Source of the DNA: a virus
Length of the DNA stretch: 64,000 nucleotides
Reading direction: 5' to 3' (one strand)
Virus record (IMG/VR): IMGVR_UViG_3300017748_000001
Location: 62,998-126,997 of that record
Part shown: piece after piece, positions 39,882 to 58,673 of the stretch
Position numbering within the stretch: position 1 is the first letter of the stretch
Layout of the letters: each line of letters opens with the position of its first letter
Made by a program: the position numbers and the translations under genes
The notes under the pieces: model-generated
The model's database searches: none
What the model saw: the letters and a program-made list of their open reading frames with translations, nothing else
What the model was told of the DNA's origin: nothing

Positions 39882-39971
39882 TGGCGGAGAGGGAGAGATT
39901 CGAACTCTCGGAAGGGACTAACCTTCGCTTGTTTTCAAGACAAGTGCTTTAAACCACTCAGCCACCTCTCC
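39882..39971 (-). tRNA. trnS: tRNA-Ser(TGA)
   Basis: GGAGAGG acceptor, CTTGT-CTTGAAA-ACAAG anticodon arm, long variable arm, TTCGAAT T-loop, encoded CCA. Confidence 0.97.
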
Positions 39972-39986
39972 GTGTCTTTTAGTTAA

Positions 39987-40063
39987 TGGCGGAGTAGACG
40001 AGACTCGAACTCGCAACCACCGGCGTGACAGGCCGGTACGCTAACCAATTGCGCCACTACTCC
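39987..40063 (-). tRNA. trnD: tRNA-Asp(GTC)
   Basis: GGAGTAG acceptor, CCGGC-CTGTCAC-GCCGG anticodon arm, CCA. Confidence 0.97.
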
Positions 40064-40071
40064 AATTAAAT

Positions 40072-40079
40072 TATTTATA
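40072..40079 (-). promoter_or_regulatory. T4 late promoter TATAAATA for tRNA-Asp/Ser
   Basis: Exact consensus, 8 nt upstream of tRNA-Asp. Confidence 0.7.
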
Positions 40080-40089
40080 GACGTTAAAA

Positions 40090-40174
40090 TGGTGGCGGGG
40101 GAAGGATTCGAACCTTCGAAGGCATAGCCGTCAGATTTACAGTCTGATCCCTTTGACCGCTCGGGAACCCCGCC
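40090..40174 (-). tRNA. trnY: tRNA-Tyr(GTA)
   Basis: GGCGGGG acceptor, TCAGA-CTGTAAA-TCTGA anticodon arm, variable arm, CCA. Confidence 0.97.
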
Positions 40175-44916: not shown

Positions 44917-45633
44917 TTACTTCCCAATTATTCCCGTTTTTAATTGATTATTATTTGTCAGACCATTTTTGACATAATATTCATCAATCATTCCAATCAA
45001 ATCTCCGATATGATTGTCTCTCTTTGAGACATGGACTTCCGGATGTAATTCATTGTCTACCGCAGCAATAATAACAACCTGAGAAACAGGTATTCTGGTT
45101 CGTTCTTCAAACATTACTGCATACCCTGAGGCTTGTCTGAAGTACTTGTCTAATTTCTCTCCACCAAACGCACTGAGAGGTCGTTTAGACGTTTTAAAAT
45201 CTATTATGGATAACTTACCATCGAATTCCGCAATACAGTCACATCGTCCTGCTATCCCCAGATGATCCGAATACATCGCATACTCTTGAGCATAGACTTT
45301 TCCGATTCTTTCATCAAGGACTGGTTTCATAATGTGAAACATTTCCAAGTCGCTTGGCATCGATTCCTTTTTCATAGGAAGATTATTGATATAGTCTTCG
45401 CACATTAAGTGGACGTTGGTTCCTCTACGAGATGCTTTGAGAGAGACTTTATTTGCCTCTGCTTCTCCGACTCGTTTTCTCCACGCCATGATGGCTGCTT
45501 TACTAAAGTAAGAAATTACTGTAGTGATAGAAGGATATCTCCCACCACTATCAGTAACGTACCATCTTTTTCCATCTTCATTCACAGTTTTAAGTTCGAA
45601 GTCATCAGACTTAAACTCTACATGATTAAACAT
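44917..45633 (-). CDS. PD-(D/E)xK exonuclease
   Basis: RYPSITTV, WRKRVGEAEANKV..RGTNVH, IAGRCDCIAEFDGKLSIIDFKTS. Confidence 0.88.
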   Translation of the reverse strand: MFNHVEFKSDDFELKTVNEDGKRWYVTDSGGRYPSITTVISYFSKAAIMAWRKRVGEAEANKVSLKASRRGTNVHLMCEDYINNLPMKKESMPSDLEMFHIMKPVLDERIGKVYAQEYAMYSDHLGIAGRCDCIAEFDGKLSIIDFKTSKRPLSAFGGEKLDKYFRQASGYAVMFEERTRIPVSQVVIIAAVDNELHPEVHVSKRDNHIGDLIGMIDEYYVKNGLTNNNQLKTGIIGK

Positions 45634-45640
45634 AATTTAT

Positions 45641-45685
45641 CTAACAACAATCACAATTACAACATTCGCAGCATTTGCAATTCAT
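45641..45685 (-). CDS. 14-aa Cys-rich micropeptide MNCKCCECCNCDCC
   Basis: AAGGAGG (45700-45694) 8 nt before the ATG; 8 of 14 codons are Cys; fills the gap between two genes. Not in the ORF track. Confidence 0.75.
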   Translation of the reverse strand: MNCKCCECCNCDCC

Positions 45686-45698
45686 GTTATGTGCCTCC

Positions 45699-46010
45699 TT
45701 ATTTTATTTCAGACTTTATCTTCTGAATCATTTTTCCAATATGTTGGTAGAATTGATTATCAACCCCCAACTGCCTATCCAACGTGGCATTGATTGCCAT
45801 GTTAATAAAGGTTAGATCGTCCAACATTCTTTTTTCTGTTATATTGAAGCCAGATTGGTCTATTGCATCAATAATATTTACCATAAGACTATGAGATATG
45901 CTTCTCCCATACTCTTCTGCCTCGATGTAGTTTTGAATTCCTTCTAGATCTTTGGCATTGATAAATTTTCGTATTTCGAAAATATTTTTTGCGTCTACTA
46001 AATCGCCCAT
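45699..46010 (-). CDS. Hypothetical protein
   Basis: AAGGAG RBS, co-oriented operon. Confidence 0.65.
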   Translation of the reverse strand: MGDLVDAKNIFEIRKFINAKDLEGIQNYIEAEEYGRSISHSLMVNIIDAIDQSGFNITEKRMLDDLTFINMAINATLDRQLGVDNQFYQHIGKMIQKIKSEIK

Positions 46011-46020
46011 AGGTATCTCC

Positions 46021-46725
46021 TTAGACTATTCCTGCCTGCAGTTTATTAAGTATATAGGATTTGACAAAACAACTTCTCACGATATCTTCTTCTACAAATT
46101 CTGTAAACCCTACATCGGTCATGTTCTTCATAATATTCATAAACTGTAGTATGCCATCTTTATCGTTTGTTTTTGTGAAGTCGCTTTGACGAAAATCTCC
46201 ACAAAATATAATTCTACAATTCTTTCCTAACCTTGTAATAATTGAATCCAATTCATGGAAATTCATATTCTGACACTCATCTACTAAAATGATGGTATCG
46301 TTTAATGTGACTCCTCTGATAAATGAGGTAGTCATGAAATTAATCGCACCCTTCTTTTTCAGTAATTGGTATGCGTCTCCTCTGCAAAATAAATCAGAGA
46401 AGATTGATTTATATGGAGCCTCATAGACTTCCATCTTTTGTTCTTCCGAACCTGGCAAAAACCCGATATCTCTTGTAGGTACAATACTCCTTACTATGCT
46501 TAAATTTTTATATCTCGGGCCTAAGTCAAATAGTTCTCTCGCTGCTAGATACAAAGAAATGTAAGTCTTTCCTGTTCCAGCGACACCATGTAAAAATAGG
46601 TGTTTTCCGTTTTCAAAGTCTTCAAATACTCTGCTCTGATTCGCAGTCATTGGATGAATGTCCACTATGTTGAAGTGTGATTCGTTCAATGCGAACCTTG
46701 CAGTTTTTCTTCTATGCTTACCCAT
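46021..46725 (-). CDS. phoH: PhoH-family ATPase
   Basis: Walker A GVAGTGKT, RSIVP, GFLPG, FIRG.TL..IILVDECQN, TRLG..IIFCGDFRQSD. Start at 46725 (AGGAG RBS) preferred over 46767. Confidence 0.93.
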   Translation of the reverse strand: MGKHRRKTARFALNESHFNIVDIHPMTANQSRVFEDFENGKHLFLHGVAGTGKTYISLYLAARELFDLGPRYKNLSIVRSIVPTRDIGFLPGSEEQKMEVYEAPYKSIFSDLFCRGDAYQLLKKKGAINFMTTSFIRGVTLNDTIILVDECQNMNFHELDSIITRLGKNCRIIFCGDFRQSDFTKTNDKDGILQFMNIMKNMTDVGFTEFVEEDIVRSCFVKSYILNKLQAGIV

Positions 46726-46777
46726 GAAATGGCTCCTGTTGTTGAGCACCATCCCATAATATTCCATAATAAAAAAC

Positions 46778-47020
46778 TCAAATCGCAGCGCCTGGCACTT
46801 TTCTAGCTTTATCTAAAACTCCTTCCTTAAAGTCTTTTGGTATCTTCTTGACACCCAATGCAATCGGATCACCGACATTCACTTTCAATATAGTTTGAGA
46901 TACTGCATTTTCTCCGCACTTTTCGCATGGTTCCTGTAGAGGTCTATTTCTTTCGGATATTTTCAGTATTTCCTCAAATCTATAATTACATGAATTACAA
47001 ATATATGTGTATGTTGGCAT
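46778..47020 (-). CDS. FmdB-family zinc-ribbon protein
   Basis: MPTYTYICNSC..FE..PCEKCG. Confidence 0.85.
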   Translation of the reverse strand: MPTYTYICNSCNYRFEEILKISERNRPLQEPCEKCGENAVSQTILKVNVGDPIALGVKKIPKDFKEGVLDKARKVPGAAI

Positions 47021-47028
47021 ATTATTCC

Positions 47029-47823
47029 CTATGCAATATTATCATAATAATCCGATATGTCATGATCTTTGACCAATGACAGAAACGGCACTTTGGAGAA
47101 GATTGAACTTACCATCAGTTTAAATCTAATCCAATCAAAATTTAATAAAGAAGATGTAGTGTACACTATTTTTTTCTTCTTGTCTACCACTTTAATGTCT
47201 CCTATGTGCCTATAGAACAACATAGGCAACGGAACGGCAGGAACTATATCGGCTCCTTGTACATGGCGGTAGATGGTTGATTTTACATTCTTTGCGTACT
47301 TTTTGCTTCCAACTCTCGGCTGGCCATAAGTGTAAACTTGACAAAGATACTTTGATCTAGCAGCAGCAACAGTTGCGAGAGCGCCTCCCAAACTGTGACC
47401 GCAAATGTAGACCAAATCTCCGGACGCATGGATTGAGTCCAGATAGAGTTCTACATCATCCCAAATTTTATCAAGGGCTTCTGCGAAACCACTATGAACA
47501 ATCCCTTGTCGTTCTTCGGATTTCTTTGGGATGATATTGATATCAGCTAAGATGTCTTTGAGTTCTGTTGGTTCAGTTCCGCGAAAAGAAAGAACAATAC
47601 AAGTTCCAGTCTTTACTACGAGTGCTTCTGTACCATCGTTATCAAAAGTTTTGAAGTGTGATTTGGTATAACCCGACAATGCATTCTCTAAGAAATGTTT
47701 GTTGTCGGTCTTGTACACTAACACTGAGAAGAGTGCTAGTTGTTTAGCGACAGATGTGGAATACTCACCCGCCTTTTCGATAGTTTTATATTTTTCGAAT
47801 TCTTTTTTTAAATCCAGTTCCAT
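47029..47823 (-). CDS. Class 3 lipase (alpha/beta hydrolase)
   Basis: VLSFRGTE..DILAD, VHSGF, GHSLGGALA nucleophile elbow, YTYGQPRVG, DIVPAVP, terminal H in DHDISDY; start at ATG 47823. Confidence 0.9.
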   Translation of the reverse strand: MELDLKKEFEKYKTIEKAGEYSTSVAKQLALFSVLVYKTDNKHFLENALSGYTKSHFKTFDNDGTEALVVKTGTCIVLSFRGTEPTELKDILADINIIPKKSEERQGIVHSGFAEALDKIWDDVELYLDSIHASGDLVYICGHSLGGALATVAAARSKYLCQVYTYGQPRVGSKKYAKNVKSTIYRHVQGADIVPAVPLPMLFYRHIGDIKVVDKKKKIVYTTSSLLNFDWIRFKLMVSSIFSKVPFLSLVKDHDISDYYDNIA

Positions 47824-48382
47824 CGTTAATCCCCATAATATCAATATTATTTATAGTATAATTATTTTTGGAGTATTTCTTCATTCTATTCTTAGCCCTC
47901 TGTATCTTGAGACTAGAAACCTTGGAAGTAAACACTACGCCGTTTAGATGATCCAGTTCATGTTGGAAACATCTCGCATCAATTCCATAAAGTAATTCTT
48001 GTCTTTTATTTTGATTTTCATCATAATACTCTACCTCAACCGACTTTGGTCTAGATATTTCTAGGAATAAATTAGGGTAACTCAGACATCCTTCTGTGTC
48101 TGCCTGAATGCTTTTGGATTTAGATAAGATCTTAGGATTTATTGCGGTGACAAATTCTCCAGAACTTCTCTGCATAACAAATATTCTGGCGTCGAGGTTG
48201 AGTTGATTCGCACTCAGGCCCCGCCCAGAATGAAATAACATATTATCTATCATCTCCACACTTAATTGTGGAGCATCGTATAGTTCGTAATCGAAGTCCT
48301 TAAGTTTAGTAGTCAGTACCTTATGTGGAGCTTCTATCAATTTCAATTTTTTATAAAAAAGTCTAGTATTAAAATTTGACAT
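47786..48382 (-). CDS. def: Peptide deformylase
   Basis: GRGLSANQL, EGCLSYP and QHELDHLNG motifs. Confidence 0.95.
   Translation of the reverse strand: MSNFNTRLFYKKLKLIEAPHKVLTTKLKDFDYELYDAPQLSVEMIDNMLFHSGRGLSANQLNLDARIFVMQRSSGEFVTAINPKILSKSKSIQADTEGCLSYPNLFLEISRPKSVEVEYYDENQNKRQELLYGIDARCFQHELDHLNGVVFTSKVSSLKIQRAKNRMKKYSKNNYTINNIDIMGINDGTGFKKRIRKI
47848..47855 (-). promoter_or_regulatory. T4 late promoter TATAAATA for the lipase
   Basis: Exact consensus embedded in the 3' end of def, 24 nt upstream of the lipase ATG. Confidence 0.7.
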
Positions 48383-52773: not shown

Positions 52774-53395
52774 CTGATATCTCAATTGAAAAATTAATAC
52801 TAAATGAAGTCTCATTTCCAGTTGGATCCTTTATTGTAAAAGTATGTGTGTTTGATGCAGCGCCCATTCCGGTTTTATCTAATGTAAACTGCACAAATCC
52901 GAATGTGTAGGTAGAATAATTATCGAAGTTAGATAGACCTCCGCCTTCAGTCAAAGAAGATCCCGTACCTTGGTTATCGCTGCACTTAAATTGATAACCA
53001 GAAAAACTAGATGCTGTGGATGTTGTCCACCTAAATTCTTGAAGAGTCTTTGTTGGTTCATTTGCGTATCCAAAAGACGAAGAGTGTGTCGGAGTTGTAT
53101 TTAATGAATGACCAGATATTGCATTTCCTTCTTGAGATTTAATTTCTATAAATCCATTCTCCAAGAAATTCACAATAATCCGCATAAGAGGTTGACCCGA
53201 TCCACCCATTTGCCGGTTTGAGGTTACGTCTACCGAGGTCAATGTAGTTCCAATTGAAGTAGTCGGGGCAGCAGGAGTTAATGGCCATACTTCGGTATTG
53301 TTTCCGTCTGCGTCTGTATAGAATACTTTATTTACCACTTGGTTATTGTAGTAAACATTAGTAGGTACACTGCCGTTATAGTGAAACTTAGTCAT
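52769..53395 (-). CDS. Putative fibre-tip protein
   Basis: N-terminal NVYYNNQVVNKVFY..EVWP motif parallels 10319..12109; follows a fibre gene. Confidence 0.5.
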   Translation of the reverse strand: MTKFHYNGSVPTNVYYNNQVVNKVFYTDADGNNTEVWPLTPAAPTTSIGTTLTSVDVTSNRQMGGSGQPLMRIIVNFLENGFIEIKSQEGNAISGHSLNTTPTHSSSFGYANEPTKTLQEFRWTTSTASSFSGYQFKCSDNQGTGSSLTEGGGLSNFDNYSTYTFGFVQFTLDKTGMGAASNTHTFTIKDPTGNETSFSINFSIEISV

Positions 53396-58106: not shown

Positions 58107-58182
58107 TGGTGCCGGTTGAGAGAATCGAACTCCCGACCTTCTCATTACAAGTGAGTTGCTCTACCTGCTGAGCTAAACCGGC
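58107..58182 (-). tRNA. trnT: tRNA-Thr(TGT)
   Basis: GCCGGTT acceptor, CTTGTAA anticodon loop, TTCGATT T-loop, CCA; A27.A43 mismatch at the top of the anticodon stem. Confidence 0.95.
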
Positions 58183-58188
58183 AAAGAG

Positions 58189-58355
58189 GGTAGAGGCGGA
58201 TGGGAATCCAACCCATCGGAAAACTTGTCGTATCCTATCCTCAGTGCGTAGTACAGGAACCGCGTTGCCCACACGATTAATGCCATCTCTGAAGTACTAG
58301 GGGGCAATTGACTCAGGCTCTCTATAGAGCATTTCCTCAAATCGCAGACGCCTCA
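58189..58355 (-). ncRNA. tRNA-like / tmRNA-TLD-like RNA of about 167 nt
   Basis: Acceptor TGAGGCG/CGCCTCT, D-like loop TCTGCGATTTGA, GGAAA/TTTCC helix, T-arm GATGGG-TTGGATT-CCCATC, 3' ACC. Confidence 0.6.
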
Positions 58356-58360
58356 TTATT

Positions 58361-58582
58361 CTATATTTTTTTCCAATCCTTTATTGTAGAAACTCGTATA
58401 TCTTGATACTGTTTAGTTTCTGTATTTTGTACCACAATAACATCACTAGTAGAATTCTGATGCATCGGTTTACCTTTCATGGTTCCGATCACAGACTCCG
58501 TTCTACCAGAGTTGACAGTTTTGTAAGTGATTTTTGCTGTGCCCAAACTAAGGGTCTTCAACAGGTTTTCAATTGTATCCAT
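58361..58582 (-). CDS. Small beta-barrel (SH3/WYL-like) hypothetical protein
   Basis: AKITYKTVNSGRT..GT..IVVQ..QYQDIRVSTI pattern; GAGAG RBS. Confidence 0.6.
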   Translation of the reverse strand: MDTIENLLKTLSLGTAKITYKTVNSGRTESVIGTMKGKPMHQNSTSDVIVVQNTETKQYQDIRVSTIKDWKKI

Positions 58583-58598
58583 TACAAAAGTCTCTCTT

Positions 58599-58673
58599 TG
58601 GAGCGGGTACTGAGAATCGAACTCAGATGATCAGCTTGGAAGGCTGACGTAATAGCCTTTATACGATACCCGC
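58599..58673 (-). tRNA. trnG: tRNA-Gly(TCC)
   Basis: GCGGGTA acceptor, TCAGC-CTTCCAA-GCTGA anticodon arm, CCA. Confidence 0.96.

Follow-up and report, generated by a model that had tools for sequence, protein, structure and literature searches.

An octa-cysteine micro-gene upstream of the exonuclease gene

A micro-gene of 14 codons followed by a TAG stop (45641-45685, minus strand) encodes the peptide MNCKCCECCNCDCC, whose eight cysteines form the skeleton CxCC-x-CC-x-CxCC. The micro-gene is real and under selection, this selection acts on the peptide, and by analogy with known proteins the product is judged moderately likely to be a metallothionein-like thiolate metal binder.

The micro-gene lies in what is referred to here as the window, the whole 64,000-nt stretch of viral DNA that was analyzed, with its ATG at 45685-45683 and its TAG at 45643-45641 on the minus strand. 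A Shine-Dalgarno (SD) sequence, AAGGAGG (45694-45700, minus strand), is positioned 8 nt 5' of this ATG and overlaps the TAA stop (45701-45699) of the upstream gene, a 103-aa ORF (45699-46010, minus strand) that is also found in close relatives, has no Pfam or PHROG match and retrieved no loci when its product was used as an anchor query. On the other side, a 7-nt spacer composed only of A and T, ATAAATT (45634-45640, minus strand), separates the micro-gene stop from the ATG of the downstream gene and contains no SD motif. This downstream gene (44917-45633, minus strand) encodes a 238-aa PD-(D/E)XK exonuclease of the T4-like gene cluster 325 type, matching Pfam PF12705 and phrog_298 (exonuclease, E 1.5e-67), and its homologue is annotated as an exonuclease in cultured Kyanoviridae. 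The preliminary description of this DNA had reported a 14-residue, eight-cysteine ORF preceded by AAGGAGG and 8 nt, filling the gap between the 103-aa gene and an exonuclease gene that starts 7 nt later with no SD of its own; both the ORF with its signal and its position in the gap were confirmed from the sequence, on the minus strand and at the coordinates given here.

Cysteine accounts for 57% of the micro-gene codons, the first three Cys codons being TGC and the last five TGT, and the peptide contains three CC pairs with K, E, N and D as spacers. The 36-nt Cys skeleton was matched once in the 64-kb window and not at all in 100 dinucleotide-preserving shuffles, and the micro-gene is the sole Cys-rich micro-ORF of the 127-kb genome record. 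A second, shorter match to CCxCC at 53012-53026 (plus strand) was rejected as a chance occurrence, lying antisense inside a 208-aa minus-strand gene. No promoter or terminator was found at the micro-ORF and no promoter-like site between it and the co-oriented genes 13 nt upstream; the predicted RNA fold of the 131 nt around it was unexceptional (z = -0.92, with 37 of 200 shuffles folding equally well), and no Rfam family matched the region. With no RNA structure, Rfam family, promoter or terminator to account for it, the sequence is not otherwise explained. We infer that the micro-gene is translated.

Other features of the window were also recorded. Near the micro-gene, at 46778-48382 (minus strand), are encoded an 80-aa Zn-ribbon (FmdB-like) protein, a class-3 lipase and a peptide deformylase, which are metal-dependent or metal-binding proteins. 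Two tRNA clusters (39882-40174 and 58107-58673) comprise Ser-TGA, Asp-GTC and Tyr-GTA, and then Thr-TGT and Gly-TCC, respectively; the window contains no tRNA-Cys.

The octa-cysteine micro-ORF family

Matches to the pattern C-[KN]-C-C-x-C-C-x-C-x-C-C that are preceded by a start within 0-12 codons and followed by a stop within 0-9 codons were taken to define a family. Pattern scans of viral contigs and genomes yielded no fewer than 44 different 36-nt cores and some 40 different peptides of 13-26 residues; a search for short, SD-led Cys-rich ORFs in related phages had been proposed as a check. The window peptide fits the family skeleton exactly and shares the polar spacers, the SD of its own and the setting in a low-GC genome. 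Among the matches listed from viral contigs were dozens of ORFs of 13-17 codons on contigs with a GC content of 0.32-0.41 (0.39 in the window), and the phage members listed place the Met 0-4 codons before the first Cys and the stop 0-1 codon after the last. The micro-gene is single-copy in each phage genome. Among the matches listed from prokaryotes, for which one genome per species was searched, members were found in SAR86 and in Porticoccaceae/Cellvibrionales, the latter being 25-26 aa long with a short C-terminal tail, and one each in single Oligoflexia and Woesearchaeota MAGs; 3 of 139 SAR86-family genomes carried the micro-gene. Most phage loci are regarded as Kyanoviridae-like because they are flanked by genes for DUF6267 and cytidylyltransferase, which belong to T4-like cluster 71 of cyanophages and pelagimyophages. 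Uncultured marine T4-like (Kyanoviridae-type) phages are judged to be the main carriers of the family, with SAR86, Porticoccaceae and a few other genomes as sporadic ones.

The family is apparently undescribed in the literature, in which no published account was found and the motif matched only unrelated eukaryote sequences. NCBIfam gave no match at E values up to 10 for the 21-25-aa members compared, and blastn of the 65-nt cassette against phages returned only chance matches (E about 1). With a 25-aa member as query, tblastn against deposited phages gave no match, such a sequence being masked as low-complexity. No copy of the pattern was present in the ten deposited Kyanoviridae-type genomes searched (HTVC008M, P-SSM2, S-SSM7, S-PM2, S-BM1, Melnitz, C48C1, AG-345-P14, vB_Psh_XG4 and S-PRM1), so these phages offer no cultured model. 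Gene callers apply a minimum gene length of about 30 codons and miss the micro-gene because it falls below this cut-off.

A relaxed 6-Cys pattern returned mostly off-frame noise without start codons, together with a few true variants. Variant peptides at three loci (L371, L399 and L447) have the N-terminal half C-K-C-C-x-C-C-x-C and continue with x-C-E-N-C-C, giving nine Cys in 18-22 aa, and those at L373 and L412 combine the same half with the ending T-C-P-E-C-N (eight Cys, 16 aa). The nine-Cys peptides resemble the octa-Cys family in their N-terminal half, size range and marine phage setting, differ from it in their C-terminal half and probably represent a sister subfamily; together with the T-C-P-E-C-N variants they suggest a wider superfamily of phage Cys micro-peptides.

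Evidence for coding and for selection on the peptide

Coding and selection are supported by four lines of evidence, three of which are independent of the search pattern. An SD-like 4-mer was present at positions -18 to -4 in 36 of 48 family members (75%), compared with 11.8% of all ATGs at the same loci. At spacer positions 5, 8 and 10, which the search pattern left free, a hydrophobic or aromatic residue occurred once in 132 against a background of 39% (P about 2e-27) and Cys did not occur; these positions were almost always T, K, S, E, D or N. Off-frame matches to the same pattern were rich in Cys, Ile, Val and Leu.

Alleles were also retrieved independently of the pattern via neighbouring genes, using exonuclease-anchored loci from viral and metagenome collections, which gave four alleles at the window's site, and NfuA-anchored loci, which gave five more cores. 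Across these alleles the Cys codons had undergone a minimum of eight changes, all of them third-position T/C swaps and none at positions 1 or 2; five changes were found in spacer codons, and the stop varied between TAG and TAA. For all eight changes to fall at the silent position has, by our own calculation, a probability of about (1/3)^8 = 1.5e-4 under neutrality. Family-wide, TGT and TGC both occur at each of the Cys positions, and the earlier argument that mixed TGC and TGT codons reflect selection on Cys was borne out by the exclusively silent swaps in the anchor-retrieved alleles. No decayed or frameshifted copies were seen, the micro-gene being either intact or cleanly absent.

Predicted metal binding and the Fe-S alternative

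The peptide presents eight thiols within twelve residues, with Lys beside Cys, polar spacers and no aromatic residues. Such an arrangement of Cys clusters and such a composition are the compositional signature of metallothioneins, and it is this that leads to the metal-thiolate reading. The product, whose family comprises peptides of 13-26 residues in which the eight Cys are invariant, would fold around metal ions via its thiolates in the manner of a miniature metallothionein, and could buffer or deliver metal, possibly an Fe-S cluster, during infection. In the complete SAR86 genome CP097973.1 (L329:4364-4877) the micro-ORF lies about 70 nt 5' of a co-oriented gene for a MerC-family metal transporter, which is followed by a DUF1993 gene. 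The neighbours of the cellular copies show no consistent theme beyond this one MerC and one GloB, and the NfuA/IscU and MerC neighbours are only hints of a metal role. Against a metallothionein-like function, a 14-residue peptide may be short-lived in cells, and its closely packed CC pairs might just as well take part in redox or sulfur chemistry.

It is considered unlikely that the peptide handles Fe-S clusters, sulfur or redox equivalents instead of buffering free metal, acting as a transient Fe-S or persulfide carrier or as a thiol reductant with the Isc/Nfu machinery of host or phage. The micro-gene immediately adjoins an NfuA-like gene, on either side of it, in 8 of 50 NfuA-anchored phage loci, the identification of NfuA being based on its Fe-S_biosyn and NifU domains and on 41-45% identity to bacterial YhgI/NfuA. 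At one locus (L214) the next gene after the micro-ORF is IscU-like, a GloB-like gene (thiol chemistry) lies downstream of the micro-gene in one SAR86 genome, and marine phages are known to carry Fe-S genes as auxiliary genes (PMC9038755). The other 42 of the 50 NfuA-like phage loci, however, lack the micro-gene, and the NfuA-adjacent cases are confined to a few related lineages. Neither NifU nor NifU_N was detected in the window's record or in its complete 200.7-kb relative, so the Fe-S link is not general. Adjacent CC pairs are, moreover, typical of metallothioneins and not of Fe-S ligation.

The NfuA homologue itself, composed of an A-type-carrier-like and an Nfu domain and bearing an invariant GGGCQGC motif, is encoded by fifty viral contigs (L356-L361 and L546-L589) and seems to be an Fe-S auxiliary gene that is widespread in marine phages.

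A presence/absence polymorphism at the phoH-exonuclease junction

The micro-gene is situated in a conserved block that is opened by the gene for a PhoH-like ATPase (248 aa; 46021-46767, minus strand; PF02562, E 1e-43) and extends to the exonuclease gene, with variable genes inserted within it. The order phoH, variable segment, exonuclease is a conserved arrangement in T4-like marine myoviruses (Kyanoviridae): phoH directly abuts the exonuclease gene in S-PM2, S-SSM7 and S-BM1, one 170-aa ORF separates the two in Pelagibacter phage HTVC008M, and in the window the 103-aa ORF and the micro-ORF lie between them. Since its contents differ between phages the junction accepts insertions, and on comparison of these gene orders it is regarded as an insertion hot spot, a variable slot in Kyanoviridae. 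In distant relatives (50-60% identity; L010, L027, L052-L068 and others) a near-consensus TTGACA-N17-TATAAT promoter directly precedes the exonuclease gene, about 60 nt 5' of its start. An exonuclease promoter of this type is absent from the window's lineage, in which the exonuclease gene therefore appears to be co-transcribed with phoH.

The contig of L069, a relative whose 200,733-bp genome is complete and has terminal repeats, contains an identical micro-ORF, and about half of the phages whose exonuclease is 93-97% identical to that of the window carry the micro-ORF. Conservation at the syntenic position, which the preliminary description had named as a check, was accordingly found in about half of these relatives and not in the others. 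At this junction the micro-gene constitutes a clean presence/absence polymorphism of about 56 nt, and it is dispensable, since phages with a 93-97% identical exonuclease lack it. In the ORF-less alleles the junction reads TAAGGTAGGTT-ATG, with AAGG 6 nt before the exonuclease ATG, and the upstream flank of two of them (L471 and L472) is letter-for-letter that of the ORF-bearing L466 and L473. As the 88% exonuclease relative and every more distant one are without the micro-ORF, the ORF-less state is taken to be ancestral and the cassette of about 56 nt, comprising SD, micro-ORF and A/T tail, to be an insertion. In the exonuclease nucleotide tree sequences with and without the ORF interleave (L001, with the ORF, is sister to L468, without it, at 96.1% identity), which indicates that recombination within one population is adding, removing or exchanging the cassette. 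Two studies provided RNA-library contigs that cover the micro-ORF with at most one mismatch; these are compatible with its transcription, DNA carry-over being possible and strand, ends and translation not being shown by such contigs. The RNA libraries of one marine sample contained contigs of both alleles (window 45476-46258), the ORF-less one with the loose end ...CCTACCTTATTTTG, so variants with and without the ORF co-occur in the same water.

Because the purine run serves the micro-ORF in ORF-bearing alleles, the exonuclease gene is left with ATAAATT and no SD of its own. Its translation at the window locus probably depends on termination-reinitiation or coupling, or on SD-independent initiation, and the 7-nt spacer without an SD makes reinitiation or coupling the likely route. 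The cassette, with its own SD, would have arrived at the phoH-exonuclease junction and would have left the exonuclease to be translated in this manner.

These observations also bear on whether the cassette is a neutral or selfish passenger, one that recombination spreads at hyperplastic T4-like phage junctions without benefiting its carrier, which we regard as quite improbable. Its clean insertion or deletion among near-identical phages, the interleaving of alleles on the exonuclease tree, its single-copy occurrence at variable sites to which it travels with its own SD, and its rarity in SAR86 would all fit such a passenger; the purifying selection that has kept all eight Cys and the polarity of the spacers in dozens of diverged copies does not, and decayed copies, flanking repeats and mobility genes were not found.

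Gene neighbourhoods and the leader-peptide alternative

The genes downstream of the micro-gene differ between loci and encode the exonuclease, cytidylyltransferase/DUF5824, a 432-aa protein of unknown function, NfuA-like and IscU-like proteins and small basic proteins; flanking genes also include DUF6267, the upstream genes are equally varied, and no single consistent partner was found across the family. At many loci the downstream gene has an SD of its own, which overlaps the micro-ORF stop. At L142 and L203 the micro-ORF comes after phoH, and a hairpin and a sigma-70-like promoter lie between it and the exonuclease gene. In four Porticoccaceae/Cellvibrionales genomes the micro-gene is the second of two genes in a conserved mini-operon that ends at a strong intrinsic terminator, the next gene being on the opposite strand. 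The varied neighbours and the terminator-closed mini-operon argue for a free-standing peptide rather than a leader.

In this mini-operon (L334:2208-2420; also L327, L341 and L347) the first gene is a 28-aa hydrophobic ORF (MEITTG...SEFWL...) with its own SD, followed after 3-4 nt by the 25-26-aa Cys peptide and then by the intrinsic terminator. A conserved AATAGTATGCATTTGAG motif situated about 100 nt 5' of the mini-operon could be an operator.

A Cys- or sulfur-sensing uORF gating exonuclease translation had been proposed in the preliminary description. In such a leader, ribosomes short of Cys-tRNA would pause at the eight Cys codons and so control whether the exonuclease is translated, in keeping with the SD-less exonuclease ATG of ORF-bearing alleles (AAGG lies 6 nt upstream in ORF-less ones), with the many family members that stop 0-10 nt before the next start codon, and with the polycysteine sORFs of mycobacteria, which are Cys-responsive attenuators (bioRxiv 10.1101/834739). 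However, the downstream genes of the family are mutually unrelated and mostly outside Cys metabolism, and many have an SD of their own overlapping the stop; several copies are terminal and are followed by a terminator or promoter; and the exact Cys spacing and polar spacers are conserved, neither of which a stalling sensor needs. The region also has no significant RNA structure (z = -0.92) and no Rfam match, the ORF is operon-internal and SD-led, not leaderless, and sibling phages manage without it. As the neighbourhoods do not fit a leader peptide, a Cys-sensing uORF is given very little credence and simple coupling at the window locus is accepted. Of the earlier proposal, sensing is thus disfavoured by the varied genes, the spacing, the lack of RNA structure and the ORF-less siblings, and what survives, given an exonuclease without an SD, is a probable translational coupling.

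That the micro-gene encodes a precursor of a modified (RiPP-like) peptide, or a peptide that serves a specific host enzyme as substrate or inhibits it, is extremely improbable, for although RiPP cores are often short and Cys-rich the family has no leader region (in some members the Met directly precedes the first Cys), no maturase conserved beside the micro-gene and no NCBIfam match for the 21-25-aa members.

Implications of a proposed metallothionein-like micro-peptide

By analogy, the micro-gene is tentatively proposed to be a portable phage auxiliary gene for the shortest and most Cys-dense ribosomal metal-thiolate peptide known (13-17 residues, eight Cys). In marine T4-like phages and a few SAR86/Porticoccaceae cells this peptide could perhaps capture or hand over trace metal or an Fe-S cluster during infection, which we advance as a serious possibility rather than as the probable case. 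Should the peptide bind metal, it would be half the size of the smallest gene-encoded molecule of the metallothionein type known, and trace-metal or Fe-S handling would join the auxiliary functions of abundant ocean phages. The family shows that phage genomes contain conserved genes of 13-17 codons, too short for any standard gene caller to report. The clean with/without polymorphism among co-occurring near-identical phages is a ready-made natural experiment through which, if the proposal is true, the benefit of the peptide would be readable from ocean metal gradients, and the peptide is small enough for direct synthesis.

Comparison with known Cys-rich peptides and attenuators

Phytochelatins have the structure (gamma-Glu-Cys)n-Gly and are made by phytochelatin synthase, not by ribosomes. 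They are metal chelators and, like the micro-peptide, are short and thiol-rich; the micro-peptide is encoded by an ORF with a start, a stop and an SD, would have ordinary peptide bonds and contains no Glu-Cys repeat. The earlier term 'phytochelatin-like' was wrong in kind, phytochelatins being made enzymatically and not gene-encoded; a gene-encoded thiol or metal-binding peptide, as also proposed there, is the prediction with the best support. The bacterial metallothioneins SmtA/BmtA, which occur in marine cyanobacteria among others, are about 55 aa long and contain Cys and His and a Zn4 cluster. Compared by description, these proteins and the micro-peptide are alike in being prokaryotic, small and of thiolate type (a prediction for the micro-peptide), and SmtA/BmtA differ in being four times longer, with a zinc-finger-like fold, His ligands and another Cys pattern.

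The polycysteine attenuators of mycobacteria are leaderless first ORFs of Cys-metabolism operons in which an RNA duplex hides the next RBS (10.1101/834739). Both they and the micro-ORF are unannotated short ORFs with runs of Cys codons just 5' of another gene, and the micro-ORF contains the two or more consecutive Cys codons in a short ORF that characterize such attenuators (10.1101/834739). The micro-ORF differs from them in being SD-led and operon-internal, with co-oriented genes 13 nt upstream, in its conserved peptide pattern, and in being followed by unrelated genes or by the end of an operon; the downstream gene encodes the PD-(D/E)XK exonuclease here, is heterogeneous across the family and mostly lies outside Cys metabolism, and no RBS-sequestering duplex was found in the 131-nt fold.

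With metallothioneins the micro-peptide shares gene encoding, richness in Cys, CXC, CC and CXCC clusters, Lys next to Cys and polar spacers, and the 14-aa peptide has the composition that characterizes the class (small, high in Cys, with CXC/CC/CXCC and no aromatics). CXCC clusters and CKC motifs are found in ciliate (Tetrahymena), crustacean and mollusc metallothioneins (PMC4862169), and the shortest classical metallothioneins, the Cu-thioneins of Neurospora crassa and Agaricus bisporus, have 26 aa and seven Cys (PMC4755600). No detectable homology to a recognised metallothionein family was seen among the 21-25-aa members compared with NCBIfam, and the Cys pattern of the micro-peptide differs from that of Neurospora (PMC4755600). 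The micro-peptide is about half the length of the shortest recognised metallothionein, has about twice the Cys density (57% compared with roughly 27-30%) and, unlike the fungal, ciliate, crustacean and mollusc proteins, is encoded by phages and marine bacteria. On these likenesses and differences, the micro-gene would be best filed as an extreme variant of the metallothionein kind.
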